The position numbers were made by a program, and so were the translations under genes. The notes under the pieces are model-generated. The model did no database searches. It was not told the DNA's origin and worked only from the letters and a program-made list of their open reading frames with translations. DNA of 64,000 nucleotides, from the NCBI GenBank assembly GCA_040005235.1, contig JBDTZG010000003.1, positions 1 to 64,000 of the forward strand, read 5' to 3'. Within the stretch, counting starts at the first letter, position 1; each line of letters begins with the position of its first letter. The stretch is from Acidobacteriota bacterium. Its GTDB lineage: Bacteria > Acidobacteriota > Thermoanaerobaculia > Multivoradales > UBA5704. Below are positions 13,273 to 31,378 of the stretch, piece by piece.

Positions 13273-14363
13273 TGCTGCGCCTGCCCGCCTTCGACTACAT
13301 CGCGGCCCAATCGATCGAAGAAGCCGCCGCGATTCTTTCCGGTGAAGGCGCCGGAGAAGGCTCCGCCGAAGCTGCCGCCCAGGGCCAACCCTCCCCGGTT
13401 CGCCTGGTCGCCGGAGGCACGGACCTCTGGCCCAACATGAAGCGCCGCCACCAAAGCGCAAAGACCGTAGTGAGCCTGATGGAAATCCCTGGCCTTTCGG
13501 ACATCCAAGCCACCCACCCCCAAGGCGAAATCCGAATCGGAGCCACCGCCCTCCTCTCCGACGTAGCCAACCACCCCCAAATCCGAACCCGCTACCCCGC
13601 CTTCGCCGAAGCCGTCGATTCGATCTCCTCTCCCCCGCTCCGGAACATGGGAACGATAGGAGGCAACCTCTGCCTCGACACCCGCTGCACCTACTACAAC
13701 CAAACCGAAGACTGGCGCCGCAGCATCGACTACTGCCTGAAAGAGAAGGGCAAGACCTGCTGGGTGGCGACCAGCTCGCCGAAGTGCCTGGCACATACGG
13801 CGTCGGACGCCGCGCCGATGCTTCAGGCGCTTGGAGCGAGAGTGCGGCTGGTATCGCGGGAGGGGGCTGGGGGTGGAACGACCGAGCGGACGATCCCGAT
13901 CGGCGAGTTGTATCGGAACGATGGGATCGACTACTTGACGAAGCGGCCGGACGAGATTCTGACGGAGATTCTGCTGCCCGCGGAAGCGGATGCGGCGCAC
14001 TGTAGAAGCGCGTTCTGGAAGCTTAGGCGGCGGGGGTCGATCGACTTTGCGGTTTTGTCGGCGGCGGTTGCGGTTTGGGTGGATGCGGGCGGGGTTGTGA
14101 CGAAGGCGAGTGTGGTGTTGGGGGCTGTTGCGTCGTGCCCTAGCGTCGCGGAAGAGGCGGGGGCGGCGCTGGTCGGGAAGAAGTTGACGGAGGAATCGGT
14201 GAAGGAGGCGGCGGGGCTGGCTCGGAGGGTGGCTACTCCGTTCGATAATACGGACTTCCAAGCGCAGTGGCGGGGGGCGATGGTGGAGGTGTGGGTGGCG
14301 GGGGCTCTGCGGGGGTGTACAGCCGGGGACATCGGTTACGGGTCAGACCGGGTTCATGGGTAA
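13272..14363 (+). CDS. FAD-binding subunit with [4Fe-4S] insert (4-hydroxybenzoyl-CoA reductase beta subunit-like)
   Basis: AGGTDL, RNMGTIGGNLCLDTRC...C...C...C; the last ~15 codons come from an IS-end-like sequence. Confidence 0.88.
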   Translation: MLRLPAFDYIAAQSIEEAAAILSGEGAGEGSAEAAAQGQPSPVRLVAGGTDLWPNMKRRHQSAKTVVSLMEIPGLSDIQATHPQGEIRIGATALLSDVANHPQIRTRYPAFAEAVDSISSPPLRNMGTIGGNLCLDTRCTYYNQTEDWRRSIDYCLKEKGKTCWVATSSPKCLAHTASDAAPMLQALGARVRLVSREGAGGGTTERTIPIGELYRNDGIDYLTKRPDEILTEILLPAEADAAHCRSAFWKLRRRGSIDFAVLSAAVAVWVDAGGVVTKASVVLGAVASCPSVAEEAGAALVGKKLTEESVKEAAGLARRVATPFDNTDFQAQWRGAMVEVWVAGALRGCTAGDIGYGSDRVHG

Positions 14364-17296: not shown

Positions 17297-17455
17297 CTAG
17301 TCAGGAGAACGCGGTTCCCCAAGCGATCTGCGAGAGGGCGATCCTCCTACTATATCTACAGACGGACCCGACGCCAGGATTCCGCAGTAGCTTAGCTAGG
17401 CCCGACGGAATAGGTGCGTAAATGGGTGGAATAGAATAGGTGCGGCCGGAATAGG

Positions 17456-18040
17456 GTAGAGTCGAAGGCGGGCGCGGTTGCTGTAGGTCGAGGGAGTCGC
17501 TGTTGACCGGCGGCTTTCGCTTGGATGCCGGTGCCTCAGTCTCGGCCGTAGCTCCGTTTCCCACCGCCGCTCATCGAACCGGAAGTGCGGATCTCCCGCA
17601 TCCGGCTCTCGGACGGACTTCACGAGAGAGCATGCACGATGCTCCTTGGCAGGCGCATCTGGCGGATGTCGAGCACTCCCACCTTTTCGCCGTACACCTC
17701 GCTGAATCCGAAGCGGCCGCTTCCGGGGGGAAGTTTGTGCCGACGACAGAGAAACCGCCGTACCCGTCCCGCGACGTGCCACCGGATAGCCGTATCGGCC
17801 TGCCCAGTGTGGCCAAAGCTGAAGTATCCGGCCCAGCCCTTCAGGAGCTGATTGAGCCGAGCTTGCAGCTCCGGCCAGGGCGTGGGGTTGCCCCGATAGA
17901 CCAGAGCGTTGATCTTTTCCTTGAGCCGCTTTTGGGCTTTCTTCGAGGGCCGGGCCGAGAGGAATCTCTTCCCGGTCAGCCCGTGCTTTGCCGGACCGAA
18001 GGTGTAGCCCAGGAAATCGAACGGCTCTTCGCGGGCCTGA
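17456..18040 (-). mobile_element. 5'-truncated group II intron (RT/maturase C-terminus plus ribozyme domains V and VI)
   Basis: Minus-strand DV GAGCCGGATGCGGGAGATCCGCACTTCCGGTTCGATGAGCGG (~17566-17608); 3' end ...CGACTCTAC at 17456. Confidence 0.92.
17620..18040 (-). pseudogene. ltrA: Group II intron reverse transcriptase/maturase, C-terminal fragment
   Basis: Manual translation: EPFDFLGYTFG...PSKKAQKRLKEKI...LNQLLKGWAGYF...RRFLCRRHK...VHALS*; no start codon and no YADD domain. Confidence 0.88.
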
Positions 18041-18063
18041 CTTCGGTCTGGACTAGCCCTACA

Positions 18064-18428
18064 CTAACCTTCACGACGCTTCTTTATCGCTTTCGTTAGG
18101 TTTTCGATATCGTCGATGCGCTGCTTGATAGCTTCAGGCCTGGGAAATGGTGTTCCGTCTGTCGGGGGCTGATCGTGAAGCCAGCGAGAGCATTCGGTCA
18201 TCCCGTCCTCAATGGCTTTGCAGTCATCCTGGGTTATATCGTGTAAGACTCTCACTTTGTTTGTCTCGACGCTGGCACGATACCGTTGCACTACATCATT
18301 GAGGAGAATTTCCGTAGTGGCCTGTTCCCATGTCAGCCGAAGGAGGCGGTAAATTCCACGCGCATCATCCTCATACTTCTCGGGAGAGGTGCGAAAAATC
18401 TTCTCCGCTTCCTGGTAACGGGCCGATC
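18064..18428 (-). pseudogene. C-terminal fragment of a large AAA-family ATPase
   Basis: YEDDARGIYRLLRLTWEQATTEILLNDVVQRYR...MTECSRWLHDQP; 5' part cut off at the motif at 18433; lower GC. Confidence 0.6.
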
Positions 18429-18432
18429 GGGA

Positions 18433-19888
18433 ATAGGTGCCAGCCTATTGGAGACAAAGTCCGAACCTCGTGCGGCGAACGAGTGTCAGACGACCGCTCT
18501 CGGCCGAAATCTTCGGCCGACAGAGCGAGAGCAGCCGGCTTTTTGGAGGGAAACACTTCGGGATCGAAGCGCGCGGGGTCTCCGGAGCGACGAGCCAAAG
18601 CGTCGGAGCATCGATCCTCGGCCAGCGGAGCAGCCGGTTGGAACTTCGGGCGGGCTTCGTTCGGATTGACGGGCAGGCGGTGTTTACGTCGCCGGCCCAA
18701 TCGCCAACCGGCCCGCTCGGACAAACGGCAGACCGGGAGGGAAGCTACCCCGTGGAAACCGAGCGAGCCGATCGCCGGCCCGCAGATACTCGGCCGCCTC
18801 TCGGAAAGTCCGGACGAACCAGGCGTAGGCGATCTTCAGCTCGGTTCGCACCTTCTTGCTGGCGGCGTGGACCCGAGGTGCAGGTGACTTTTTAGTTTTC
18901 GCCGGCTGAGAAAACGGCTGCTGCCGGAGGATCGCGGCCGGGCCGAGTGGCTCGATTCCTGTCTCCACTTGCCGAGCGGCGGCCTTGGCGACAATCGCCT
19001 CGACCAACTCGGCGATCCGCGCGCGGTACGGCTCCCCCACCGGATCTCGCCAGCAAGGCAAGGGAGAGAGAGTCACGACCTCGGGGTCCGCGAACTGCCG
19101 AGCGCCGAATTCCTCGCCGCGCTGGCGCGCCTGCCATTCCTTGGTGCGACTGAACCAGGTTCCCTCGATCGGCTCGCCGGTGAGCAGCGCGGTGACGCAG
19201 TGGACCCCTGGCCATTCCTGCGGCCGGGCGACCAAGTTCTCCTTGCAGCCATGAGAGAGGATGTAGACCAGCCGCCCGACCTGGGCTTCTTCTTCGTCGC
19301 TCACCAGAATCGCCTGATAGCGGCGAGAGAAAACCTTGTCTCGCCAGCCGGTCGATCGGGCGACCTCGCGGGCGAGCTTCGAGTTGAAATAGCCCATGAA
19401 GCGCGCCAGGCGCTCACTGTCCTCGGCCCGCGCCAGAAGGTGAAAGTGGTTCGAGGCAAAGAAGAACGCGCAGATCTCCAGCGGGTAGAGGCGCTGTGCC
19501 CGGCCGAGGGCTCCGACGATCACCTCGTTGAGCAGCGGTCCCGGCCGAAGAAGGAATCGGCTGTGGACCGTGCGGCAGGTGACCTCGTAGAGGGCTCCCC
19601 CATCGGGCGTGAATCGTAGCTTCCTGGCCATTTCGGCATCCGGCATTTCAAATGGCCTGCCACGCGGAGCGCGGCGAGCTAAGCTACAGAAACCGTGCGG
19701 CTTGTGCGCAACGCCGTGAATCCCGGGAGCGGCTCGACCCCGCAAAAGAACTTGCGGGGTGGCCGGTCCAATCTCAGGGAAAGCTCTGATTTTGCGGAGT
19801 TTACCGCGTGTCAAAAGATCTTGACAGGCGCGCAATCTCTTGCGTGGACGCAGTGCGGGGCTGCGCAGCAGGTTAGGGTGGCACCTAT
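18433..19888 (-). mobile_element. RAYT-like HUH transposase element bounded by 15-bp imperfect inverted motifs
   Basis: ATAGGTGCCAGCCTA (18433-18447) and TAGGGTGGCACCTAT (19874-19888), one mismatch, enclosing the transposase. Confidence 0.75.
18684..19631 (-). CDS. REP-associated tyrosine (Y1/HUH) transposase, RAYT-like
   Basis: MARKLR...YEVTCRT, SNHFHLL (HUH), VFSRRYQAILV, YILSHGCKENLV...EWPG. Confidence 0.9.
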   Translation of the reverse strand: MARKLRFTPDGGALYEVTCRTVHSRFLLRPGPLLNEVIVGALGRAQRLYPLEICAFFFASNHFHLLARAEDSERLARFMGYFNSKLAREVARSTGWRDKVFSRRYQAILVSDEEEAQVGRLVYILSHGCKENLVARPQEWPGVHCVTALLTGEPIEGTWFSRTKEWQARQRGEEFGARQFADPEVVTLSPLPCWRDPVGEPYRARIAELVEAIVAKAAARQVETGIEPLGPAAILRQQPFSQPAKTKKSPAPRVHAASKKVRTELKIAYAWFVRTFREAAEYLRAGDRLARFPRGSFPPGLPFVRAGRLAIGPAT

Positions 19889-20167
19889 CCCCCCCGAGCG
19901 GCACCTATCCCCCCCGAGCAGATCCTCGTACGACGAACGAGGACGAAACGGCAGACCCCCAGCTGAAGGCGGCAGTCAGAAGGACTCACCTGCTGGGTGC
20001 AGCGGAGTCAAAGGCGCGGCGAGCTGCGGGCTCGGGCGATCGGCCCGCTTCCATCCGGCGCGGAATCAAATACGCTACTCTTAAGGCTGGAATAGAGATG
20101 TCTTGGATCGGGTCCGAATTTACGGACACCGGATGACCACTCGGGTCGACCCTGGCGAAGGAGAACC

Positions 20168-20377
20168 ATGCTCAAGAGGCGCAAGAGGTTACTCAGTCTT
20201 TCAAAAGAGACGTTGGTAGCGCTCCATCCCATTGCAGGTGAGGATACCGTAGCAGCCGGGACGGCCGGGACGTCCGCCGATATGACCTGCAACACCACGC
20301 TTTGCACGCAGCCGGGATTTGGTTGCGGTTCCGGCCAGCCCTGCGTTCCGACGGGCGGGAGGCATTGCACCTTCTGA
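20168..20377 (+). CDS. Putative RiPP (class I lanthipeptide-like) precursor 1
   Basis: GAAGGAG RBS; leader KRLLSLSKETLVAL; Thr/Cys-rich core with 5 Cys. Confidence 0.75.
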   Translation: MLKRRKRLLSLSKETLVALHPIAGEDTVAAGTAGTSADMTCNTTLCTQPGFGCGSGQPCVPTGGRHCTF

Positions 20378-20493
20378 GAAGCTGCAAGAGGTCCAGCTCG
20401 CGGGCAAAGGTGCGGTAAATACCGCACCCTCGCCTTCGTTCGAGGCTGGAGGAGCACCGCGAAGAAACTCCAAGGGCGGGCGACCCGGCGGAA

Positions 20494-20823
20494 ATAGGTG
20501 CCGAGGGTCCAACCCGAGGACGAGACCGCGCCCGGCCGGGAACGGCATTTTGCAGAGCGGGTTGTTAGCTGGCCTTCAGCGGGAATCACGCCGAGCCCGG
20601 AGCCTGTGGGGCCTTTGGAACGTCGGAACTGAAGTGTCGGAATGTAGTTCCGCAGCGACCAGGCCAAGCGGTCGTAATTATCTCAAGCCTTTTGGGTTTG
20701 AGCGGCTGACCGCCCTGGCCTACGTGGCCGGGTTGGTCGCCAACCGACCCGCTCGGACAAACAGCAATTCGGGAGGGAAGCTCCCGCGGGGAAACCGACC
20801 CCGGAATAGGTGCCACCCTAACC
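20494..20823 (-). mobile_element. Degenerate fragment of the RAYT 3' end and flank
   Basis: CGCCAACCGACCCGCTCGGACAAAC...GGGAGGGAAGCTCCCGCGGGGAAACCGA matches 18703-18762; motif copies at ~20494 and 20806. Confidence 0.7.
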
Positions 20824-20890
20824 GAAAGCGGCCTGTCCATCAACGCAGCCAGCTTGACGCCACCCCCTTGGCTGTGTATTGATACACAAC

Positions 20891-21078
20891 ATGCGGAGTA
20901 CCGAGGTGGTCAAGCGGCTTGAGGCCGACGGTTGGGTTTGCGTCGGCGGCAAGGGCGACCACCGGAAGTTCAAGCACCCGACTAAACCGGCCACGTCACC
21001 GTGCCTCACCCGCGAAGGGACATCGCGATCGGCACGTTGCGCAATATCTTCCGGCAGGCCGGCTGGGAATGGAGTTGA
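20891..21078 (+). pseudogene. hicA: HicA toxin, frameshifted
   Basis: MRSTEVVKRLEADGW...KGDHRKFKHPTKP then a 1-nt deletion (~20989), continuing HVTVPHPRRDIAIGTLRNIFRQAGW. Confidence 0.85.
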
Positions 21079-21081
21079 GCG

Positions 21082-21474
21082 ATGCTGTATCCGGTATACG
21101 TACACAAGGATCCTGACAGTGCCTATGGGATGACCTTCCCGGATTTTCCAGGGTGCTTCTCGGCAGCCGACGACCTCGGGGAGGTCTCACGCCTGGCACA
21201 GGAAGCAGTCGAGGTGCATTTCGAAGGCGAGAACCTGGCGATCCCGTCCCCCACGCCGATTGAGAAACTCGCGGTAGATCCCAACTATGGGGGCGGCTTT
21301 TGGCTCCTGCTCGACGTCGATCTGTCCAAGGTGAACACCAAGAGCGTGCGCCTCAACATCTCACTGCCGGCAAACTTGGTCGGCCAGATCGACCACTACG
21401 CGGCCGAGCATCACATGACTCGAAGCGGGTTCCTGGCCAAAGCCGCGCTTCAGGCGATCGGCAACGGGACATAG
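21082..21474 (+). CDS. hicB: HicB antitoxin
   Basis: YPVYVHKDPDSAYGMTFPDFPGCFSA...RLNISLP...TRSGFLA (RHH). Confidence 0.92.
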   Translation: MLYPVYVHKDPDSAYGMTFPDFPGCFSAADDLGEVSRLAQEAVEVHFEGENLAIPSPTPIEKLAVDPNYGGGFWLLLDVDLSKVNTKSVRLNISLPANLVGQIDHYAAEHHMTRSGFLAKAALQAIGNGT

Positions 21475-21506
21475 GCGCACGTCGAGCTTCGGGCGGCCTA
21501 CTGCCC

Positions 21507-21758
21507 TTAGGCGCGAGCACGTCTTGCGGGACGGCGGGTCAAGAGCGCGGTCTTTTCCCCCACTTCCAGCAGGTAGAGAAGGGCCTCATTGACCGCTTCA
21601 GAAGTGGGAAAAGCCTGCGCCACCCGAGGTTCCAGAACCACGATGTTCGATCCCTGCTTCAGCCTCTCCGCATATTTCCCGCGCACCAGCTCGCCGAAGT
21701 CGGAACGTTTGTACTCCGGCCGGAGCTCGTCGTCAAACCCCACATCATCCTTCTTCAT
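21507..21758 (-). CDS. BrnA-like antitoxin
   Basis: DELRPEY...VRGKYA...VVLEPRVAQAFPTSEAVNEAL; overlaps brnT. Confidence 0.8.
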   Translation of the reverse strand: MKKDDVGFDDELRPEYKRSDFGELVRGKYAERLKQGSNIVVLEPRVAQAFPTSEAVNEALLYLLEVGEKTALLTRRPARRARA

Positions 21759-22017
21759 AGAGCTTCCTTTCAGGACGGGTTGCCTTTCGAGCACTAATGA
21801 TCCGAAGACAGTCAGCGCTCTCCGTGTGAGAAACCGCCAATAACCGGCCGGCAGCCGACCGGCCCAAGACGACGTATCGGTTCTCGAGCACCGAGTGATC
21901 CGGATCGTGGCCCGTAACAGAGAGCGCATCGTAAAACACCGTCGAGGCCTCCTCGAACGAGACGCTGTGCTTTCGCAGGTTGTGCTCCGCCTTGGCGCGA
22001 TCCCATTGAAATTGCAT
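21745..22017 (-). CDS. brnT: BrnT family toxin
   Basis: FQWDRAKAEHNLRKHSVSFEEASTVF...RIISARKAT. Confidence 0.92.
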   Translation of the reverse strand: MQFQWDRAKAEHNLRKHSVSFEEASTVFYDALSVTGHDPDHSVLENRYVVLGRSAAGRLLAVSHTESADCLRIISARKATRPERKLYEEG

Positions 22018-22269
22018 CGCCGGTCATTGTAGCTCCTCCCCCCGCCCCTTCACTCGTACCGCAACACCTCGATCTCGGGTCCAACCCCGCCGTCCACCGC
22101 GCCCCGGAATAGGTGCCCCCGAAATAGGTGCCAGCCTAACCTGAGGATGAGACCGATTCTCGTGCGGCGAAACGGGATCGGAGCGACCACTCCGGCCGAA
22201 ATCGGCAGTCGGCGGGGCGAGTTGCAACCGGCCTTCGCCGGGAATCACGCCGAATTCGAAGCCTGTGTA

Positions 22270-22362
22270 GCCATCGGAGGCCCACTGCCGAAGATCCTCC
22301 GAGTTGATCACTTCGACATTCAGAATCTCGTCTCGCCGCTTCTCCAGCGTCGATAGCTTCAT
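22270..22362 (-). pseudogene. Internally deleted minimal nucleotidyltransferase remnant
   Basis: MKLSTLEKRRDEIL fused directly to VEVINSEDLRQW, then RAYT-flank sequence. Confidence 0.35.
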
Positions 22363-22952
22363 GCCACCGGTCCCACGACTCTGTTCACCAACCGTTCGAA
22401 CTCGGGAATTCTCTCGGGCGCATCCAGAATCTGTGCGAACTCATGGACGAAAGCGCGCACTCTTTCCAGATCGATGCGGTCCGCGTGCAACGTGAGGAGC
22501 TGCTCGATGTCGTATCGGTCCCGATCTCTCCAGGCAAGAACCTTGTAGATGACCAGGTCTTCAGGAGCGGCGACCGAAATCTTGATTCCCCCGAACTTCA
22601 CCTCGACCGCTTGCGCCAGGGCCTCCTGCTCAAAGGAGGTATAGGCGAAGCTGATTTCCAAGGTTACTTTCGTCTTATCGTGCACGAGCAAGAGAACTTG
22701 GCTTTTCTTGGCGAACTCCAAGCAATCGGGGATCCGCGGACGAATCGATCCCTCTGCCAAGGTCTTAAGGAAACTGGAAGTGTCGAGGTGAGCCGCAAGA
22801 ACCGTGGCGTCGATGTCGATGGTCTGGCGCGCCACTCCGTGGGCGATGACCGCAATTCCTCCGATCACCATGCTCGGGGAGTCGATCCGCCCGAGAGCCT
22901 TCGCCAAGTCGGCGAGAGCCTCCAGGATTTTCTTACTTGGCCGCTTGGCCAT
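22359..22952 (-). CDS. Nucleotidyltransferase (DUF6036/AbiEii-like)
   Basis: MVIGGIAVIAHGVARQTIDID, APEDLVIYKVLAWRDRDRYDI. Confidence 0.85.
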   Translation of the reverse strand: MAKRPSKKILEALADLAKALGRIDSPSMVIGGIAVIAHGVARQTIDIDATVLAAHLDTSSFLKTLAEGSIRPRIPDCLEFAKKSQVLLLVHDKTKVTLEISFAYTSFEQEALAQAVEVKFGGIKISVAAPEDLVIYKVLAWRDRDRYDIEQLLTLHADRIDLERVRAFVHEFAQILDAPERIPEFERLVNRVVGPVA

Positions 22953-23220
22953 GGGCCACATAGTAACTGCGGACACGAACCCAGCAGTTCCGAGCGTGCT
23001 CGGCGTCACGACGGCGAACATCGTTTTCGGGAGGAGGCCAGCCGTGCATCGTGCCGAACAGGTCCATCAGCTCCAAGGCACCTCGGACGGAGACGGCCGA
23101 ATCAGGCCCCGCTTGGCGGCGCTCCTCTCGCTCTTGGACTTCCACGGCCTGCCACCCGGCGACCATCCGGTGCAGGCTCCCAGGAAGATCTGTAGTTTTG
23201 GAGGGCCGGACGGTCTTCAT
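22933..23220 (-). CDS. Small partner (putative antitoxin) of the nucleotidyltransferase
   Basis: 95-aa ORF overlapping the NTase start; duplicated at 29150-29437. Confidence 0.65.
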   Translation of the reverse strand: MKTVRPSKTTDLPGSLHRMVAGWQAVEVQEREERRQAGPDSAVSVRGALELMDLFGTMHGWPPPENDVRRRDAEHARNCWVRVRSYYVAHGQAAK

Positions 23221-23278
23221 CGCGAAAGCCTAGCATGGGCTTTTGCTTCGGACCCCGGGAACGTGTCCCGCGGGCGCG

Positions 23279-23488
23279 CTATGCCGCCTGGCCGGTCCCT
23301 CTTCGGGGCGGGCGTGGAGGGTTCCGCATTGGGATTCTTCCAGCGGCCGCCTCGCGAGCGCGCAGTTGCTCGCCCAAGGCATGAAGGTCCCCACCGACAG
23401 CTTCGACGATCCGTGCGCGTGCGGCACGGACCTCGGAGACGATTGGATCAACCCACGGGGTTTGCGAATCTTCAAGGGGCATCGACAT
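23279..23488 (-). CDS. Small antitoxin-like protein
   Basis: WVDPIVSEVRAARARI...GGDL motif, typical of partners of PIN toxins; GGAGA upstream. Confidence 0.6.
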   Translation of the reverse strand: MSMPLEDSQTPWVDPIVSEVRAARARIVEAVGGDLHALGEQLRAREAAAGRIPMRNPPRPPRRGTGQAA

Positions 23489-23890
23489 ACTAGGATTCTC
23501 CCATCAGTTCGTCGGGAGTACACTGAATCGGCGGCTCGTAACCTGCCCCCCGACACGCAGCTTCGACGAGAGGGCGCCTTTTCAGAGGGGAAGACTTTGC
23601 GAGCGCCGCATCCTGGTAGGGGCTGGAGCTGCTACGAACGAAACCGCTTGATCAGGTCTTCAAAGTCCTGCAGGAGTAGTCTCCTGTTCAAGGACCGTGT
23701 CGATCCGTTAACCGCGCGCCTGAACCGCGAGGATCACGCAGGCCGCCCCGGGGTTGGCCCAAGGCCTCGTCCCTCGCGCCTCACCGGATTTCCGGATCGC
23801 GTGTCGGATTCGGCCGCCGCGGCGATCGCTTTGCCGAACCCTTCCTTCGATTTCCGGACGCGGCCGATCGAACCTCCGTGTGCGCAGATC

Positions 23891-24226
23891 GAATTTCTAG
23901 CTCCGATGACCGTTCCGCTGAGTAAACGGAGGGATCTTCTGCTTCAAATGACCCCTCCGCTACCCTGGGGGAACCCTCTTTCTTCCAAAAAGACCCTTAC
24001 GCTGGTCCAGCGTAGGGGTCTTTTTCTTCGCAAGACGCCCACGCCGGACCGGCGGGATGGTCTTTTCTCCGCAAAGACTGCTGCGCCGGACCTGCGGAAC
24101 GGTCTTTTAGGCGAAAAGACCCAGCCTTCAAGGAAGAGGACGGATCTTTTTCTGTGAAAAACCTCTCCCCCCAACCTCTGGAACGGTCTTTCTTCCTCGA
24201 AATCCCCTTCGCGGAGGCGGCGCAAC
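23891..24226. repeat. 42-bp periodic degenerate array (~8 units), core GGTCTTTT-N6-AAAGAC
   Basis: Unit starts at 23891, 23933, 23975, 24017, 24059, 24101, 24143 and 24185. Confidence 0.85.
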
Positions 24227-24271
24227 GAACTGGAGCGGCGATATTCTCCCCCTTCGTCCAAGGAGAATGTC

Positions 24272-24652
24272 ATGGCAGACCGGTCGTACGGGGGAAAGCT
24301 TGTCCGGTGGCAAACGATGGCGCACAACATCGAGGATTCCGTACCGCTGATCCCTGGCGCGGACGGCCCGATGGCCGAGCTTCGCGAGAAACTTGCCGAG
24401 CTGAGCAAGACTCACGGGACTCTGGTGGAGATGGAAGGCCGAAAGAAGGAGCTGGTGCAGCTCCGCAGGCGCCTCGATCAAGAAACCCAGGAGGTCGTGA
24501 GGCGTCTCGCCTCGGCCGCTCGGGCTCATTTCGGATTCAAAAGCCCGCAGCTCGAAACTTTCGGCGTCCCGGCGGAGATCTTCAGCCGGCGCAAAAACCA
24601 CGGGAAGAGAGGGCCGGCGCGAAAGAAACCGAGCCCCGAGTCGCAGGACTGA
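24272..24652 (+). CDS. Small helical hypothetical protein with basic tail
   Basis: AAGGAG RBS; coiled-coil-like, ARAHFGFKSPQLETFGV motif, K/R-rich C-terminus. Confidence 0.8.
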   Translation: MADRSYGGKLVRWQTMAHNIEDSVPLIPGADGPMAELREKLAELSKTHGTLVEMEGRKKELVQLRRRLDQETQEVVRRLASAARAHFGFKSPQLETFGVPAEIFSRRKNHGKRGPARKKPSPESQD

Positions 24653-24953
24653 TGCAGCCTGCTTGACGCCTCGGAGGCCGCAGGGGGTTCTCAGCTTTGC
24701 CGACGCGATCTCCAAAGGCCGGATTTCCCGGAAACCCCGAGCGAGCACCCGATGGCGACCAGTCCGGCGTTTCGCAAGGCCGTGCCGAGAGTCTGCAATA
24801 GGTCCGGCACGGGCAGCAGCGCCAAGAGAAAATTGAGTCCCAGCCCGGCAAGGAAAAGGACCGCGGTCCATCGCGGCACGGCTTTGGGCCTGGAGGGTGG
24901 CGATGCCTCGCCGGAGCCGCGGTATCCTCTCGCCCGGAGGGGAGGTTCCAGGC

Positions 24954-25754
24954 ATGAGCGTCGGCAGCACAATGGTTCGGGGGGCGGAGATCCGTTTTCA
25001 AGAGGCGGCGGAAGAGCTGCGGCCGTGGGTCGGCTGCTTCTGGGTGATCACCGCGGACCGGGACGCCGTCCTTCGGCTCGTTCCCGATGGGAGCACCACG
25101 ATCTCCGCTCAGGTGCGGGACGGGGAAGCTCCCGTCTGGGTCTTGCGGGGCCCCGTACTGAGGCCCGACGAGCGCCGCTTCGAGATGCCGGCGACGGTGG
25201 TGGGGATCCGGTTGCGGCCGGGGGTCGCCTTCCTTTTGACGGGCATCTTGATGGAGACGCTGGTCGATCGGCGGCTCGATCTTTCGGGCCTCGAATCCTT
25301 TCGGGATCTCGTCGCCGCCGAGCCTCCACCGCGCACGCCCTCGGAGCACATCGCGTCGCTCGAAAGGTTTCTGATTGCGCGGCTCGGACATGCCGCCGTC
25401 CATCCGGTCGTCGCGTCCGTCCTCGCCGAGCTCGAGCGCAGCCGCGGAGGTCTGCGGGCATCCGAGCTGGCCGCCCATGGCGGCGTGAGCCCTCGGCAGC
25501 TGAATCGGCTGATGCGCCGGTGGGTGGGCTTCGGCTCCAAACAGCTTGCGAACATCGTTCGCTTCCAGGCGACGCTTCACGAGATGGAACAGCCGGCCCA
25601 ACCTCCCCTGGCTTCGCTTGCGGCGGAGAACGGGTATTACGATCAGTCCCACCTTACGCACGACGCCGTCCGGTTCTCGGGAACCACGCCGGGCGATCTC
25701 CTGCCGCGCGCGATGTCCGATTTTTCCAAGACCCGTTGCGACCAGCTCCTCTAG
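24954..25754 (+). CDS. AraC-family regulator (DUF6597 N-terminus)
   Basis: LRPWVGCFW, VPDG, SPRQLNRL...GYYDQSHL. Confidence 0.88.
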   Translation: MSVGSTMVRGAEIRFQEAAEELRPWVGCFWVITADRDAVLRLVPDGSTTISAQVRDGEAPVWVLRGPVLRPDERRFEMPATVVGIRLRPGVAFLLTGILMETLVDRRLDLSGLESFRDLVAAEPPPRTPSEHIASLERFLIARLGHAAVHPVVASVLAELERSRGGLRASELAAHGGVSPRQLNRLMRRWVGFGSKQLANIVRFQATLHEMEQPAQPPLASLAAENGYYDQSHLTHDAVRFSGTTPGDLLPRAMSDFSKTRCDQLL

Positions 25755-25829
25755 AGTAGGGCCTCAGTTGGCGCCCGGCCGCCGCGGAGCGGCGGCCCTT
25801 TAGGCCTCAAGGCTCAGGAGCCCTACCCC

Positions 25830-26216
25830 ATGTGGAAGCATGTCGCTGGCGTGTTCGTCGGATTGCTGGTTTGGATCGCCGTCGCCCTGGTGGCGGGCGT
25901 TCTATTGCGGTGGTTCTGGCCCGAATACGTCGCCGCCTCGGGGGCCATGGCGTTCACATTGCCAATGATGCTCACGCGGCTTTCGATCGGTGCCCTGGCG
26001 ACGATCGCGGCCGGAGCATTGGCCGCCCGCCTTGGGCAATCGAACCGAGCGGCGATTTTCCTCGGCGCGGTCCTGCTCGTGATCTTTGTCCCTATGCACG
26101 TCCATCTTTGGGACAAGTTTCCCCCCTGGTATCACCTGACGTTTCTCGCGTCGCTCGTTCCGCTTGCCGTCTTCGGGGGGAGGATGGCGCAACGAGGGCC
26201 GAAGCGAGGCGCATAG
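25830..26216 (+). CDS. Hypothetical membrane protein
   Basis: AGGAG RBS; 4 TM helices, FPPWYHL. Confidence 0.75.
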   Translation: MWKHVAGVFVGLLVWIAVALVAGVLLRWFWPEYVAASGAMAFTLPMMLTRLSIGALATIAAGALAARLGQSNRAAIFLGAVLLVIFVPMHVHLWDKFPPWYHLTFLASLVPLAVFGGRMAQRGPKRGA

Positions 26217-26482
26217 CTGAAAGGGTCAATCAACTCGGCGATCCGCTCGCGGTATTGCTCCTCCGGCAGATGTCGCCAACACGGCAAACGCGCGAGGTTG
26301 ACGACCTCGGTGTCCGCGAACTGCCGAGCGCCGAACTCCTCGCCGCGCTGGCGCGCTTCCCATTCCCTGGTGCGATCGAACCAGGTTCCCTCGATCGGCT
26401 CGCCGGTGAGGAGAGCACTGACGCAGTGAACCCCCGGCCAGTCCTGAGGCTGGGCGACCAGGTTCTCTTTGCAGCCATGAGA
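26217..26482 (-). pseudogene. Internal RAYT fragment
   Basis: SHGCKENLVAQPQDWPGVH...YRERIAELI, closely similar to 18684-19631. Confidence 0.88.
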
Positions 26483-26758
26483 AATCTGTCGTTTTGAACA
26501 GCGGGCCTCGGCGCTACGTAACCGGCGCAATCGCCATCCGTGGATGCGTAGAGTTCCGGCCGATCAGGCCTGGGGGCTGCGCTTCGACGCTCCGGCGACC
26601 CCAAGGGATCCTCTCGGCATAAATCCCCGCCGAGCCGAATGACTGGCTGCGCCGTACTCAAGTTGGCTGCTTCCTGCGGCCGCGACCGGCCCTGTCGACC
26701 CGAGTCGCCACTCTTGGGCCGCGCCGGGGGATCGCGTGGCTTCTCTAAGAGGGTGGTA

Positions 26759-26855
26759 CCTATCCAGGCCTGGCGAGGCCGTGCCCGGCGAACTGGCGCC
26801 TCCGCCGGTCCTATCCTGGCGAGGCCGTGCCCGGCGAACTGGCGCCTCCGCCGGT
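26759..26855. repeat. ~46-50-bp tandem duplication starting at a motif copy
   Basis: CCTATCC(AGGCC)TGGCGAGGCCGTGCCCGGCGAACTGGCGCCTCCGCCGGT twice. Confidence 0.85.
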
Positions 26856-26974
26856 CTGAAACAGAGGAGCAGCCTACCGCCAGGGAGGTCAGTCGGCGTC
26901 ACTAAGGACAGGACAATGGCCGCAACCCGGAGGCAGCGGAACTGTCTCCGCAGCCTCCGCTTTTCCTGCTCCAG

Positions 26975-27157
26975 CTAGCAGGTGGTGTCGCACGTTTCAC
27001 AGCTCTCGCAGGAGATGCAGGCGGAGCAGTCGGAGGGACACGTATTTATACAATTCGTCCGGAAGCTGAGACCGCCATCGACCCTCTTCTGATCGTCTCT
27101 GGACAAATCGCGCACGGTCTCTCTGCTGAGCTTGAGTTTCGCAAGTCGCTTCTTCAT
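26975..27157 (-). CDS. Putative lanthipeptide-like precursor 2
   Basis: AAAGGAG RBS; MKKRLAKLKLSRETVRDL...VDGG / LSFRTNCINTCPSDCSACISCESCETCDTTC (8 Cys). Confidence 0.85.
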   Translation of the reverse strand: MKKRLAKLKLSRETVRDLSRDDQKRVDGGLSFRTNCINTCPSDCSACISCESCETCDTTC

Positions 27158-27339
27158 CGAACTCTCCTTTGCTACGGCGTTTTTGTTGATGACGCTTATT
27201 TATCTTAACAGCGACCTCTCGCTTGGCTCAAGTAGCGCCTCATGAAGAGGGTGGCACCTATAGCCAGGGGATGGAAAGGCGGCGAGCTGACCTACACCTG
27301 CACCCCGCCGAGCTCCGCAGGCGCGGACTTTGACGAGGC

Positions 27340-27470
27340 CCTGCCGCCCTGCTCACCGGCCAGCCGATCGAGGGAACCTGGTTCGATCGAACGAAGGAGT
27401 GGGAAGCGCGCGAGCGCGGCGACGAGGTGGGTGCCCGGCAATTCACAGAAACAGAGGTCGTGGACCTCGC
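27340..27470 (+). pseudogene. Internal RAYT fragment, opposite orientation
   Basis: GCCCTGCTCACCGGCCAGCCGATCGAGGGAACCTGGTTCGATCGAACG encodes ALLTGQPIEGTWFDRTKEWEAR. Confidence 0.8.
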
Positions 27471-27737
27471 CCCCCGGCTTGCCTCAGCTATCCTGCGAAC
27501 GTGGAATCTCGTGCGACGCGGTCGCTTGGCGTGGGACGCCCGCCCGTGATCAGGAGATCGGCGAGCGCTGCGTAGATCGGGAGCCCTGCCCGCTTGGCTA
27601 CCCCGGCCGAATAGGTGCCAGCCTAACCTGAGGGCGCAGCCGCCGCGCGGCGGAAGCTTCACTTGAGCCGACCAACGGTTCCGGCCGGCTCAAAGCCGCA
27701 TTTTCGGATGCTTCGGCTACTTCCCGGTCCGCCTGAC

Positions 27738-27905
27738 CTAGCAGATGTCGCTGCAAGTGGTGTTGCAGGAAGGGTCCGAACAGAACTCTGTGCTGTTCGT
27801 ACACTTCAGGGTCGCTCCGCCCACCGCCTTCAGTATCTCGCGGTTGGTTAACTGGCTGATGGTCTCCTGGCTTAGGTTGAGCTTCTTCTTAGCCTTGGCT
27901 TTCAT
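27738..27905 (-). CDS. Putative lanthipeptide-like precursor 3
   Basis: GAGGAG RBS; MKAKAKKKLNLSQETISQL...AVGG / ATLKCTNSTEFCSDPSCNTTCSDIC (5 Cys). Confidence 0.85.
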   Translation of the reverse strand: MKAKAKKKLNLSQETISQLTNREILKAVGGATLKCTNSTEFCSDPSCNTTCSDIC

Positions 27906-28050
27906 CGGAAGGTTCTCCTCGGCAGAGCCGGCCCCATCGCCGGTCCATATCAATCAAGGTGAGGCTATCTGGCTTTTCCGCGCCTCTCCGGGAAGAAGTG
28001 TCGGAAGGTAGAACCGCAGCCACCAGGCCAGGCGGTCGTAATGATCTGCT

Positions 28051-28540
28051 CGGAATAGGTGCCAGCCTATTGGAGACAAAGTCCGAACCGCGTGCGGCGA
28101 ACGAGAGTCAGACGACCGCTCTCGGCCGGAATCTTCGGCCGGCAGAGCGAGTTGAAGCCGGCTTTTCGGTGGAAATCACTTCGGGATCGAAGCGCGCGGG
28201 TCTTCGGAGCGACGAGCCAAAGCGTCGGAGCAACGATCCTCGGTCGGCGGAGCAACCAATTGGAACTTCGGGCGTGCTTCCTTCGGATTGACGGGCAGGC
28301 GGTATTTACGTCGCCGACCCAATCGCCAACCGGCCCGCTCGGACAAACGGCAGACCGGGAGGGAAGCTCCCGCGGGGAAACCGAGCCAGCCGTTCGCCGG
28401 CCTTCAGGTACTCCGGCGCTTCCCTGAAGGCCCTCACAAACCAGCGGTAGGCGACCTTGATCTCGGTCCGGTCCGAACCCGCTTGCTGGCGGCGTGGACC
28501 CGCGGCGCAGGTGACTTCTTGGTCTTCGCCGGCTGAGGAA
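28051..28540 (-). mobile_element. Second copy of the RAYT 3' end and flank (truncated)
   Basis: Closely similar to ~18429-18908, including the motif and the C-terminal ARFPRGSFPPGLPFVRAGRLAIG. Confidence 0.9.
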
Positions 28541-28611
28541 GGGTGCCAGTCCAACCCGAGGGCTCGATTTCTGTTTGTCTCCCAGCGAGCCCGGCGTACA
28601 ATTACCCCACT

Positions 28612-28848
28612 ATGAGCCAACCGCTAAGAGTCCCTCCGGGGTTCGACGACTTGCCGATCGGCGAGCAGATCGACTATGTCCAGGCTCTGTGGGGTCGGAT
28701 CGCCCAACGTGAGGATCAGATTCCCGTGCCAGACTGGCACCGAGAGGTGATCGCAGAGCAGCTCGAAGAATACCGAGCGGATCCCGAAGCCGGGCGCCCG
28801 TGGGAAGAGATCGAAGCAGAGCTGCAGCGGATCGACCCCGTCCGCTGA
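28612..28848 (+). CDS. Addiction-module antitoxin (TIGR02574-like)
   Basis: LPIGEQIDYVQALW...PDWHREVI...GRPWEEI. Confidence 0.85.
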   Translation: MSQPLRVPPGFDDLPIGEQIDYVQALWGRIAQREDQIPVPDWHREVIAEQLEEYRADPEAGRPWEEIEAELQRIDPVR

Positions 28849-29084
28849 TGCTTCTGATCCTACGCCCCAGAGCGGAGTCCAACGTCAAGGCCGCCCGAGG
28901 CTGGTACGAGTCGGAGCGTCCAGGCTTGGGAGATCGATTCGTCCTCGATCTCAGCGAGAGTTAACAACGGATTCGGGGCAACCCTCTTCAATATCCGGAC
29001 ATCGGCGGCGCCCGACGATGTCTCCTCCGTAAGTTTCCCTATTCGATTTACTACGTCCAACCGAGAGACGATCGAGTGATCGTC
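28848..29084 (+). pseudogene. RelE/ParE toxin with premature stop and truncation
   Basis: MLLILRPRAE...WYESERPGLGDRF...S*QRIRGNPLQYP...RRCLLRKFPYSIYY; TAA at 28962-28964. Confidence 0.82.
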
Positions 29085-29475
29085 CCGCATCGATCTGGAA
29101 AGAGTGCGCGCTTTCGTCCATGAGTTCGCACAGAGCCTCCAGGATCTTCTTACTTGGCCTCTTGGCCATGGGCCACATAGTAACTTCGGACACGAACCCA
29201 GCAGTTCCGAGCGAGCTCGGCGTCACGACGGCGAACATCGTTTTCGGGAGGAGGCCAGCCGTGCATCGTGCCGAACAGGTCCATCAGCTCCAAGGCACCT
29301 CGGACGGAGACGGCCGAATCAGGCCCCGCTTGGCGGCGCTCCTCTCGCTCTTGGACTTCCACGGCCTGCCACCCGGCGACCATCCGGTGCAGGCTCCCAG
29401 GAAGATCTGTAGTTTTGGAGGGCCGGACGGTCTTCATCGCGAAAGCCTAGCATGGGCTTGCTTCGGACCCCGGGA
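29085..29475 (-). repeat. Rearranged duplicate of the NTase/partner locus
   Basis: 29132-29475 nearly identical to ~22915-23261; 29085-29134 is the reverse complement of ~22430-22479. Confidence 0.9.
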
Positions 29476-29649
29476 ATAGGTGGTGCAGTCACCTGCACGA
29501 AAATACTCGGCCACCTCTCGGAAAGTCCGGACGAACCAGGTGTAGGCGATCTTCAGCTCCGGCGAGGAGAGCGGTGACGCAGTGGACCCCTGGCCCGCGT
29601 TAGGTGCTGCCCAGCCAGGTCCATTCGCGGCCCAACCGGACCCGAAGGG

Positions 29650-29868
29650 GTAGAGACGCCCAGTACCCAGCCACGGTCTTGTCCGGGTGCTGGCTGCCGG
29701 GGCGTCTCCAGCGCACCAACGACCACCGGCGCCACAGACAACGACACACCACGGACAGACAGGGGGCACCCGTTCGGGGACCCTTCGGCGGCCATCGTGG
29801 TAGACCGGAGACGCCCCGACGGCCAGCACCCGGATAGGTTTGTGGTTGGGTACTGGGGGCGTCTCTAC
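29650..29868. repeat. GTAG-initiated long hairpin (REPIN-like)
   Basis: GTAGAGACGCCCAGTACCCAGCCAC pairs with GTGGTTGGGTACTGGGGGCGTCTCTAC; inner TCCGGGTGCTGGCTGCCGGGGGCGTCTCC pairs with GGAGACGCCCCGACGGCCAGCACCCGGA. Confidence 0.8.
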
Positions 29869-30081
29869 TCTCTGCGCCGGGCGATCACGCGGAAGGCGGC
29901 GCCGACTGCTTACCGGCCGAGCCATCGGCTCATCCGGGTTTGCGTCGGCGGCCAGGGCGACCGGAAGCTGCGGGCCGCGCCGAGGGGCTCGATTCCGGTC
30001 GCCTCCCGCCGGACGATGATCGCGTCGACCAACCCGGCGATCCGCTCGCGAGCCACGATCCCCATCCACCGAGTCGCGAGA

Positions 30082-30612
30082 TCAAACAGGTACGTAGGTC
30101 AACCGGATCACATCCTCGGCAATCCGGTCATGAGTTATAAGTCGGAGCGGCGGCCGGGGTCCGGCGAAATAGGGTTTGCCTTGACCCAGCACGACGGGGT
30201 GCAGGTAGATTCGATACTCATCGATCAGGCCAAGTTCGGTGAGGCTTTGCGCCAAGGCCGGGCCAGCAACTTCGATCTCCCCGTCGCGCTCGGCCTTCAG
30301 CTCGCGGATCGCGCCCTCAAGATCATCCTCAACAAGCCTGGCGTTGGGGCCGACCGACTTCAACGAGCGCGAGACGACCCATTTCGGCTGGTTCCGCCAC
30401 GCCGCCGCGAAGGCGTGTTCGTCTGCATTCCATTCAGGATGATCGTCATCCCAGTAACGCATGACCTCATACATTTGGCGACCGTAGACACTGCCCGCCA
30501 GCCCCTGAGCCTCCTCGATAAAGTGGCGGAAGAGCGTGGGACTCGGCCCAAACGCCGTATGGTCGACGTAGCCGTCGAGGGACTGGTTCATTCCGAACAC
30601 GAGCTTAGCCAT
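30082..30612 (-). CDS. Dihydrofolate reductase family (RibD C-terminal) protein
   Basis: MNQSLDGYVD, YGRQMYE, GLIDEYRIYLHPVVLGQGKPYF. Confidence 0.9.
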   Translation of the reverse strand: MAKLVFGMNQSLDGYVDHTAFGPSPTLFRHFIEEAQGLAGSVYGRQMYEVMRYWDDDHPEWNADEHAFAAAWRNQPKWVVSRSLKSVGPNARLVEDDLEGAIRELKAERDGEIEVAGPALAQSLTELGLIDEYRIYLHPVVLGQGKPYFAGPRPPLRLITHDRIAEDVIRLTYVPV

Positions 30613-30674
30613 ATCCACTTCCTTTCTTCACCGCTCCCCTCGCTACGCCGCGCGATCGGCGTCTGGAGCGAGGG

Positions 30675-31145
30675 TTAGTAGGCAGCACAGGCGTATTCAT
30701 AGCCCTGCTCTTTGAGCTGCTGACGCAGCTTTTCGTCTTTGGCGAACATTGCGCAAGTGGTGAAGTACCCAACCAGCGTTCCGCCTTGGTTGTATCCCCA
30801 ATCTGAAATCTGGTCTCGGGTGAAGCTGACTTCTTGTCCCAATTTTAATCCCGGGATCCATTGAGGTTCGCTCTTCAGGGTTCCCTGGAAAGCTCCGCGT
30901 GCGCCTTGCCGGAAGGGCGTAACCCACATGTGCTCCTGCGCTGTCCCGTGCTCAAATCGCACCTTCACGACGAAGCCAGAAATTCCATCTGGGGCCTTGT
31001 TCTTGACGGCTAGAAAGTCGTCCAGGGTCTGACGAGCTCGCAAGATCGCGGAATTCATCTCGGGATCTGAACCGGGAACAAGCGTGCCCTTGTCCGCGGC
31101 GCAGGCTGCCATCGAGAACGCGAGAAGGATAATGAATTTGCGCAT
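30675..31145 (-). CDS. DUF2314 (YegJ-like) lipoprotein
   Basis: Lipobox MAAC; DPEMNSAILRARQTL, EHMWV, ISDWGY, GYFT. Confidence 0.85.
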   Translation of the reverse strand: MRKFIILLAFSMAACAADKGTLVPGSDPEMNSAILRARQTLDDFLAVKNKAPDGISGFVVKVRFEHGTAQEHMWVTPFRQGARGAFQGTLKSEPQWIPGLKLGQEVSFTRDQISDWGYNQGGTLVGYFTTCAMFAKDEKLRQQLKEQGYEYACAAY

Positions 31146-31150
31146 GGCTG

Positions 31151-31305
31151 GACCGACACGACCCGCCGCTCGCCCCCCTGCCTGAGCAGGACTGGCTCGT
31201 GCCCAATAACATCTTCCCTCTTCGGTCGGCATACGGCGCACCCCTTCTCTGCGATTGACTTGCACTATTAGGCCCTAGCTCAGAGGCGTCGTCAACAGGG
31301 TAAAC
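31151..31305 (-). repeat. ~150-bp shared upstream leader, copy 1
   Basis: Aligns with ~32069-32220 (CTTCGGTCGGCATACGGC..CCCCTTCTC.GCGATTGACTTGCA.TATTAG). Confidence 0.8.
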
Positions 31306-31378
31306 AGCCTGCTCGAATAAGGGGTTTACCGCGGAGCTGCGCCGCAGGTTTGGGTGGCACCTCTCTGCAAGCGCATGA

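Follow-up and report, generated by a model that had tools for sequence, protein, structure and literature searches.

Element E1 and its terminal motif

We analyzed a 64-kb stretch of an Acidobacteriota bacterium genome (contig JBDTZG010000003.1, positions 1 to 64,000; hereafter the window), in which a gene for a Y1 HUH enzyme, repeated copies of a 15-bp motif and small accessory genes lie together between 17.4 and 31.4 kb. An earlier sequence-only reading had taken this segment for an array of gene cassettes shuffled by the enzyme. We observed one intact element, E1 (1,456 bp; 18433..19888, minus strand), composed of a motif at its RE end (gene 3′ side), a 236-bp subterminal region, a 315-aa gene, a 242-bp leader and a motif at its LE end (gene 5′ side). 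The RE terminal repeat (18433..18447, plus strand) is the G-type ATAGGTGCCAGCCTA, with ...CGGGA as its outer flank. The LE terminal repeat (19874..19888, minus strand) is the C-type ATAGGTGCCACCCTA, with a duplicated half-motif directly outside it at 19900.

A search of the window with ATAGGTGCCASCCTA, allowing up to two mismatches, returned nine matches compared to 0.03 expected (0 of 100 shuffles reached nine). These lie at 18433 (+), 19874 (−), 20806 (+), 22124 (+), 26749 (−, two mismatches), 27247 (−, one mismatch), 27611 (+), 28055 (+) and 31350 (−, two mismatches). The copies listed by the sequence-only reading were recovered at the same coordinates, including the inverted pair at 18433 and 19874 said to bound the intact RAYT-like gene. 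Its partial copies were also present, as half-motifs AATAGGTGCC (at most one mismatch) at 17409, 17435, 20493 and 22108, and as a truncated motif GGGAATAGGTGG at 29472-29483.

In full-length E1 homologs on contig C35 and in sister genomes, blastn homology ended at most 5 nt from the motifs. Two intact copies from sister genomes (L002 and L005) kept the E1 layout, with an inverted motif pair ~250-280 bp from the gene. From these sequence comparisons, we read the motif as the terminal inverted repeat (TIR) of the element and not as a cassette delimiter.

With its flanks included, the conserved word is longer, approximately GGAATAGGTGCCASCCTAAC, with a fixed inside and a fixed outside. We typed the ends of 82 motif instances from the window genome and sister arrays; 41 of the 82 were not typable, and the classified ends comprised 32 RE-type and 9 LE-type. 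With a slash at the outer boundary, RE ends have the form GGA/ATAGGTGCCA-G-CCTA and continue inward into a conserved ...CTCGTGCGGCGAA... region; LE ends have the form CAG or TCG/ATAGGTGCCA-C-CCTA and continue with ACCTGC.GCGC.... The variable base was G in 27/32 RE-type ends and C in 7/9 LE-type ends. A CCSGGA consensus lies directly outside RE ends. The motif can form a hairpin, TAGG-N6-CCTA, with a 4-bp stem and an ATAG head. Separately, we observed tandem half-motif “stutters” (GGAATAGGTGCC, 1-3 copies) adjoining the outer side of 21/79 ends compared to the inner side of 5/79 (for example 19894-19909 and 22108-22117 in the window, and 4610-4630 and 6430-6452 on C35).

Besides E1, blastn of the element against the genome found ~9 diverged fragments in the window. 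A decayed element (20493..20801, minus strand) retains a half-motif at 20493, the RE subterminal region and the last 26 gene codons (20721-20798), and this C-terminal scrap adjoins the motif at 20806. A gene-free solo RE end (22108..22279, minus strand) carries a half-motif at 22108, the full G-type motif at 22124-22138 and ~140 bp of RE subterminal region. At 26231..26764 (minus strand), a gene scrap (26231-26482, minus strand; element positions 665-916) is joined in opposite orientation to a variant RE that ends in the motif at 26749-26763. The motif at 27247-27261 is accompanied by a plus-strand gene scrap at 27344-27475 (whole feature 27247..27475), and the solo motif at 27611..27625 (plus strand) has G at the variable base and the LE-type inward sequence ACCTGAGGGCGCAG.... 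A further gene remnant lies at 28052..28540 (minus strand): next to an RE end (motif 28055-28069), the C-terminal third of the gene is present a second time, with 87.6% identity to E1. The partial motif at 29472-29483 precedes scrambled gene scraps at 29489-29595 and 29973-30050 (feature 29472..30050, minus strand). The last fragment is a degenerate LE end (31331..31365, minus strand; motif 31350-31364).

Fragments within an array were mostly co-oriented, with 9 minus and 1 plus in the window and 12 plus and 2 minus in C35 0-14 kb. Many scraps retained the RE without 5′ sequence, and many segments between motifs consisted of element scraps only. The DNA between motifs, described earlier as small unrelated cargo mixed with transposase scraps, is mostly element scraps together with ordinary island genes.

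Other repeats and derivatives were seen beside element ends. An exact 42-nt direct repeat with 46-bp spacing (26769-26856) lies directly outside the motif at 26749-26763. On contig C51 of sister genome G004, a 910-bp element that has lost internal sequence but keeps its two terminal motifs (L020, 3741-4650) starts 24 bp past the RE of a full-length copy; this derivative may be a non-autonomous form, resembling a miniature inverted-repeat transposable element. The idea that the RE region forms a structured RNA or contains covarying hairpins was rejected: RNAalifold on 21 RE ends gave 12 pairs with one compensatory change and a covariation term of 0.06, and an Rfam search of the region gave no match.

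The enzyme and its family

The gene of E1 (P0001; 18684..19631, minus strand) encodes a Y1 HUH protein of the TIRYT (TIR-associated tyrosine transposase) type. It has >2,237 database homologs of ~305-315 aa, mostly in Thermoanaerobaculia metagenome bins, several of which are labeled RayT in the source annotation. Among 29 aligned homologs, H62 and H64 of the HUH metal-binding motif (N-H-F-H) were invariant, as was Y123, the predicted catalytic tyrosine, which lies inside a model helix at residues 114-130. This helix reads R-L-x-Y-x-L-S-H-G-x-K-E, with Y-[ILV]-L-S-H-G-x-K-E as the alignment variant. No second tyrosine was present 3-4 residues from Y123 in the alignment, and much of the C-terminal half was also invariant.

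An AlphaFold model of the 315-aa protein (pLDDT 81, pTM 0.70) aligned best to 4er8, the E. coli TnpA-REP bound to its repetitive extragenic palindromic (REP) hairpin (VIA-align, Z 14.8, root-mean-square deviation 2.8 Å, 152/165 residues, model residues 1-216). The match to IS608 TnpA was well below this (Z 9.2). Foldseek likewise ranked 4er8 first (E 3.3e-6), followed by the ISDra2, IS200 and IS608 transposases at E 1e-4 to 1e-3. Profile searches narrowly missed Pfam Y1_Tnp (PF01797; 22.8 bits, cut-off 23.0) and missed NCBIfam REP_Tyr_transpos (NF047646; 39 bits, cut-off 80). The C-terminal half, and its last ~100 residues in particular, had no convincing structural match (Foldseek was weak past the Y1 enzymes, and the VIA rows span residues 6-214). 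No helix-turn-helix (HTH) family was found in Pfam at E ≤ 0.01, and the C-terminal 100 residues were barely covered structurally. On the model and the alignment, we assign the protein to the Y1 HUH superfamily as a member of the RAYT kind, with the HUH motif, a single predicted catalytic tyrosine and the TnpA/TnpA-REP fold. The sequence-only call of an HUH/RAYT-like enzyme is borne out by H62, H64 and Y123 and by the fold match to 4er8.

We tested selection on six intact genes (15 pairs) and observed dN/dS values of 0.08-0.16 in 15/15 pairs. Three paralogs in G004 showed 87-89% nucleotide identity and dS of 0.34-0.51. By these sequence estimates, the copies are old yet kept intact under purifying selection, with no sign of a recent burst.

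Genome-wide, the motif (at most one mismatch) occurred 16 times in 6.2 Mb, with 7 copies on C18, 6 on C35, 2 on C4 and 1 on C8. A looser 20-mer search found 19 copies, one extra on C100. The contigs with motifs are those holding gene scraps, and the motif was found only beside gene copies or scraps; the genome (G000) contains 20 gene matches. Of 41 related genomes, 37 carried the gene family; a single genome had as many as 29 matches, and many matches contained internal stops. Among five sister genomes, G001 held 4 motifs and 3 gene matches, G002 held 16 and 17, G003 14 and 14, G004 37 and 29, and G006 16 and 27; a reversed-pattern control gave 0, 0, 1, 0 and 1 matches, respectively. G001 had the fewest and G004 the most of both motifs and gene matches, with G006 departing from this trend. 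The motifs were clustered in these genomes too. The clustering near the transposase family that the sequence-only reading proposed to check was seen beside the gene in the window genome. No plasmid relatives were found in PLSDB by tblastn.

The repeat was also found outside the close relatives. In L008, a copy whose protein is 65% identical, the ends are related (AGGTTCCAGSCGATTCT) and lie ~255-265 bp from the gene. We examined the 400-bp flanks of 41 full-length distant copies from other genera (47-65% protein identity) and observed the exact 8-mer GGTGCCAG facing inward in both flanks of 13/41 and in one flank of a further 13/41 (at least one flank in 26/41). The expectation was 0.026 per 400-bp flank, and the wrong-orientation control gave 0/41. 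The downstream copy usually lay 208-268 bp past the stop codon. Because the GGTGCCAG core faces inward in other genera, the window motif is a local version of a terminal repeat conserved in the family.

Orientation relative to replication was mixed. On the 8.4-Mb contig C3 of G013, 4/4 minus-strand copies lay below 3.03 Mb and 5/5 plus-strand copies above 3.69 Mb, for which local GC skew does not account. Using 20-kb skew, which is confounded by transcription, C18 had a skew of −0.0135 with minus-strand elements and C35 a skew of +0.0048, with one discordant scrap on C8. By the same transcription-confounded 20-kb measure, the gene lay on the locally G-rich strand in 14 of the 41 distant copies (P = 0.06), a trend opposite to the IS608-type lagging-strand bias.

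Breakpoints, island genes and a group II intron

An all-against-all comparison of 24 array stretches (213 kb with 100 motifs) gave homologous segments, of which those <30% element-derived were taken as cargo. The internal end points of cargo clustered into 113 breakpoints, which were compared to 500 shuffles. Breakpoints fell at most 12 bp from a full motif in 5/113 cases (random 2.3 ± 1.5; 45/500 shuffles reached this value) and at most 25 bp from a full or half motif in 14/113 (random 5.2 ± 2.3; 1/500 shuffles). Edges of element- or intron-derived DNA accounted for 19/113 (random 4.8; 0/500 shuffles). The motif is over-represented among breakpoints (~2.7-fold), yet ~85% of cargo borders lie elsewhere. 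The sequence-only reading had suggested comparing strains for cargo gained or lost at the motif; such breaks exceed chance when half-motifs are counted, but full motifs account for few of them and most lie elsewhere. In a separate count, the outer flanks of ends contained element DNA in 18/79 cases compared to 21.9 at random, and self-insertion into element bodies was rejected.

The best candidate for mobile cargo is a toxin-antitoxin (TA) unit, hicAB (20801..21479, plus strand), with a C-type motif at 20806-20820, hicA at 20879-21133 and hicB at 21082-21474 (Pfam HicA and HicB_lk_antitox). A brnT toxin gene follows on the minus strand (21745..22017; Pfam BrnT_toxin, E 3.6e-26). The presence of hicA, hicB and brnT confirms the block that had been placed between the motifs at 20806 and 22124. 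The hicAB unit recurs at 87-95% identity in L013, L016, L017 and L023. On its left, the unit is bordered by the motif in three assembly contexts (the window, L017 and L013). Its right border lies a few bases past the hicB stop and is the same in four contexts with four different right flanks; no motif occurs at this border in any of the four. Because the arrays are syntenic, the sharing of hicAB may partly reflect inheritance with later insertions and deletions.

We checked junctions on Logan contigs of runs X1 and X2, which belong to the same study and of which X1 may be the origin of this DNA, and of X3, a related strain; such contigs cannot reveal rare excision forms. The X1 and X2 contigs contained 97% of sampled words and bridged 19888, 20806 and 22124 without differences, which speaks against misassembly, raised as a possible refutation, at these points. 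A joint from 17580 to 18701 in X1 and X2 is most likely derived from the paralogous locus on C35. X3 contigs carried a joint from 18692 to 20801, which is maybe a further hicAB context or the paralogous scrap at 20721-20798, as well as joints from 21482 to 21738 and from 24622 to 22119. The last gives the RE motif at 22124 another left context.

A nucleotidyltransferase gene (DUF6036/AbiEii-like by Pfam and PADLOC AbiEii; 22359..23021, minus strand) is partly duplicated at 29085-29431. The duplication comprises a 50-bp inverted segment (22430-22479 and 29085-29134, 100% identity) and a 300-bp direct segment (22915-23214 and 29132-29431, 99%), and is a recent local rearrangement, unlike the old element copies. 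The duplicated locus ends at ~29475 as proposed; the two copies part exactly at the end of ...CCCCGGGAA, beyond which copy 2 enters TAGGTGG. This break fits the CCSGGA consensus outside RE ends, and the one case together with the consensus hints at a short preferred join site.

Left of E1 lies the C-terminal ~120 aa of a PDC-S06-type candidate defense gene (18067..18444, minus strand; PADLOC PDLC04891, E 2.6e-28, profile 739-857 of 858). The sequence-only reading had described an AAA ATPase fragment cut at 18433. A fragment does stop there; it matches PDC-S06, and no ATPase domain was shown. It has no continuation right of E1.

The surrounding DNA forms an island. GC content was 57-64% at 14-34 kb compared to 65-71% in the 14 kb leftward and 63-68% rightward; GC3-based gene calling was not discriminating within the island. 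The left-flank gene (13272-14363, a CO-dehydrogenase-type flavoprotein) is conserved on the array-carrying contigs G002:C103, G004:C152 and G001:C79, and also on G003:C101; homology ends at ~14.3 kb. On the right, 36.7-41 kb matches DNA that adjoins arrays in two sister genomes (G002:C59 and G006:C154), and core-genome sequence returns at ~43.8 kb. The conserved left and right flanks therefore mark the array as one syntenic locus whose content varies between species.

Other island genes include RibD_C (30082-30618) and DUF2314 (30675-31265) genes identified by Pfam, directly inside the degenerate LE end, as well as addiction-module antitoxin and AraC genes. At the island's left edge, an 898-aa open reading frame (ORF; 14600-17296, minus strand) has no Pfam family and weak PADLOC matches to LmuA (E 2.4e-6) and PDC-M48B (E 2.6e-5); it may encode an uncharacterized defense protein. 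Four 35-nt palindromes, AAAGAC...GTCTTT, with 42- or 84-bp spacing (23989-24191) lie upstream of an ORF at 24272-24652. The palindrome frame occurs in 8 copies genome-wide (C18, C30, C118, C29, C35), and paralogs of the whole stretch at 23765-24652 are present on C118 as well as in sister genomes. A ~240-bp stretch (29631-29868) with an inverted repeat (29652-29718 and 29798-29864) belongs to a small repeat family of its own, with further copies on C26, C112, C7 and C56 as well as in sister genomes.

A 5′-truncated group II intron, represented by its 3′ 635 nt, lies at 17407..18041 (minus strand), with a maturase-domain ORF at 17623-18063 (Pfam GIIM, E 6.6e-13) and domain V/VI at 17456-17610 (Rfam RF00029, 37.5 bits, E 3e-4, just under the Rfam cut-off of 40). 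Its 3′ exon consists of the motif remainder and half-motifs (17409-17444). The partial copies placed earlier at ~17410-17455 are real half-motifs that belong to this 3′ exon. A full-length copy in L019 (4560-6603; domains D1-D4 85 bits, domain V/VI 44.9 bits) starts with GTGCG after TAGGCTGGCA and ends with ...CTAC before CCTATT (TAGGCTGGCA/GTGCG...CTAC/CCTAT), so that the RE motif is split precisely by the intron. In 6/6 intron copies, the 3′ exon begins with CCTAT or CCTTT, with half-motifs next in 4/6. Other partial intron copies lie beside motifs on C35 (47775-47917 and 48746-49331) and in sister arrays. Judged by these boundaries, a group II intron family appears to home into the terminal motif of the element.

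Origin of the array and rival explanations

Our data make it likely that 17.4-31.4 kb is a pile-up of a TIRtron-type family, with one intact and ~9 decayed copies in a variable defense/TA island. The enzyme would bind the hairpin-capable motif TAGG-N6-CCTA on single-stranded DNA and would cut and rejoin there, like TnpA-REP and the IS200/IS605 TnpA, with RE ends joined beside CCSGGA-like sequence. Motifs would then come to lie at breakpoints through repeated joining of ends, adjacent deletions and recombination between copies, and such events might occasionally carry a neighboring module (hicAB) into new contexts. This account builds on the architecture, distribution, synteny, fold, purifying selection and motif-anchored junctions documented above; that motif-anchored joining sometimes carried a neighboring module is possible.

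RAYT-like genes with TIRs instead of REPs were described as TIRtrons or TIRYTs (Di Nocera et al. 2013, PMC3733652). That paper reports a sharply defined Acidobacteria-specific group, with TIRs in moderately sized families “organized in dimers or clusters”, a majority TIR consensus of GGGGWSAS and other TIRs unrelated to this consensus. In the classification of Quentin et al. 2018 (PMC6006769), most TIRYTs fall into TnpA-Y1 subclass 2.1, one of 12 published subclasses, with a median of 238 aa, Y-x3-N-P and a C-terminal HTH (Bac_DnaA_C, HTH_23 or HTH_28); the same paper describes the non-IS200 subclasses as lacking typical insertion sequence (IS) features. Our literature search for the term TIRYT returned only these two papers, and their consulted sections describe no activity assay for TIR-flanked RAYT-like genes. 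The family studied here resembles TIRtrons in that a Y1 HUH gene is flanked at a distance by TIRs and not REPs (15-20-nt ends at ~250 bp in the window, L002, L005 and L008) and in that the TIR copies are clustered, as PMC3733652 reports. It differs in its core, (A)GGTGCCAG and not GGGGWSAS, and in its multiple gene copies, many of them decayed and stacked in syntenic arrays. Compared to subclass 2.1, the protein has 315 aa and Y-x3-H-G, and no HTH tail was found with Pfam.

Several observations weigh against a TIRtron-type pile-up. E1 is not a simple insertion, because the defense-gene fragment on its left has no continuation on its right. The stutters outside the ends are left without explanation by a terminal-repeat model, and the fixed, motif-free right border of hicAB is not predicted by simple end-adjacent rearrangement. 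Because outer flanks are not enriched in element DNA, clustering is not accounted for by insertion into element bodies. An automated search for filled and empty sites between arrays gave 231 candidates, mostly internal-deletion paralogs, with no clean site. Near-identical copies were absent among the six intact genes (best 89% nucleotide identity, between two G004 paralogs); because both a clean site and near-identical copies are missing, current mobility is unproven. The protein falls under the curated Pfam and NCBIfam cut-offs and so represents a divergent family. Its Y-x3-H-G helix fits no row of Table 1 as given in PMC6006769 (Y-x3-N-P, Y-x3-Q, Y-x4-Q), and the 2013 Acidobacteria group enters this comparison by its description only.

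The sequence-only reading favored integron-like capture, in which the HUH enzyme would excise and insert cassettes and each cargo unit would be bounded by motifs; we consider this very unlikely. The locus resembles integrons and the likewise HUH-driven ISCR systems in being a variable array at a fixed, syntenic site with small accessory genes such as TA modules. The hicAB unit starts at a motif in three contexts, with the X3 joint from 18692 maybe a fourth, and the RE motif at 22124 has its second left context in X3. Cargo breakpoints are enriched at full or half motifs, and the claim that no tyrosine recombinase lies nearby was borne out (the phage-integrase family PF00589 matches only twice in the genome, on C12 and C5). 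The motif is, however, the inverted end of a transposase element, and no one-site-per-cassette regularity was seen: most breakpoints are off the motif, enrichment at full motifs was reached by 45/500 shuffles, the hicAB right border is motif-free and many inter-motif segments hold only element scraps. The arrays are syntenic, so shared modules may have been inherited and not moved, and unlike integrons the locus has no IntI or attC and its cargo is not regularly site-bounded. One-ended mobilization like that of IS91, ISCR or Helitron elements appears quite unlikely as well. A single end, mainly the RE, would act as origin for copying and joining of variable length, leaving 5′-truncated copies and carrying adjacent genes. 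The many scraps that keep the RE without 5′ sequence, the co-orientation of fragments, the 32 RE-type compared to 9 LE-type ends and the motif at only one end of hicAB all fit this scheme. It is contradicted by the single conserved tyrosine and the Y1/RAYT fold, which differ from the two-tyrosine (Y2) rolling-circle HUH type, by intact elements with two well-defined inverted ends and by a right border of hicAB that is fixed and not variable; half of the ends (41/82) were also not typable.

A REPtron, that is a domesticated single-copy RAYT with a dispersed REP/REPIN family, is extremely unlikely here. Among solved structures, the best match is TnpA-REP in complex with a REP hairpin, source annotations name the family RayT, both systems have the HUH motif with a single tyrosine and a hairpin-capable inverted repeat on both sides of the gene, and the 4-bp stem with its ATAG head resembles the GTAG of REPs as described in PMC3733652 and PMC6006769. 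REPs, in contrast, occur in hundreds of dispersed copies with a single-copy gene, whereas here 16-19 motif copies in 6.2 Mb are clustered with gene scraps and none is dispersed. The gene occurs in multiple copies, often in broken form (G000 has 20 matches and one sister genome as many as 29), and the repeats are single terminal copies ~250 bp from the gene. The element shares with IS200/IS605 members (IS608 and ISDra2 TnpA) the Y1 HUH fold, multiple, partial and internal-deletion copies, and a sequence outside the RE, CCSGGA, that recalls their fixed target tetra- or pentanucleotide. IS200/IS605 elements have no TIRs and a TnpA of ~130-150 aa with Y-x3-Q, unlike the TIRs, 315 aa and Y-x3-H-G seen here. 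Their copies within a genome are 99.4% identical (PMC6006769, Table 1), compared to at most 89% among our six intact genes. A further reading, which we regard as unlikely, is an undescribed IS-like Y1 HUH clade, defined by 315 aa, Y-x3-H-G, its own conserved C-terminal half and the GGTGCCAG repeat. By motif-anchored, largely single-ended joining of single-stranded DNA, it would build co-oriented arrays at one syntenic defense island and move adjacent TA or defense modules such as hicAB, as a Y1 counterpart of ISCR/integron shuffling, with the stutters as footprints of repeated joining.

TIR-flanked RAYT-like genes are already catalogued (PMC3733652, PMC6006769), and our analysis reveals no new integron-like capture system. 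The TIRtron-type family at this locus shows IS features, namely many copies, broken and internal-deletion copies and inverted ends with a core conserved across genera, and its diverged paralogs are under long-term purifying selection. LE and RE oligonucleotides with the GGTGCCAG core, together with the enzyme, offer a concrete system for how a Y1 HUH protein treats inverted ends. The locus also documents a group II intron with a transposon end as its predicted homing site, and it illustrates such elements helping to scramble a defense/TA island.

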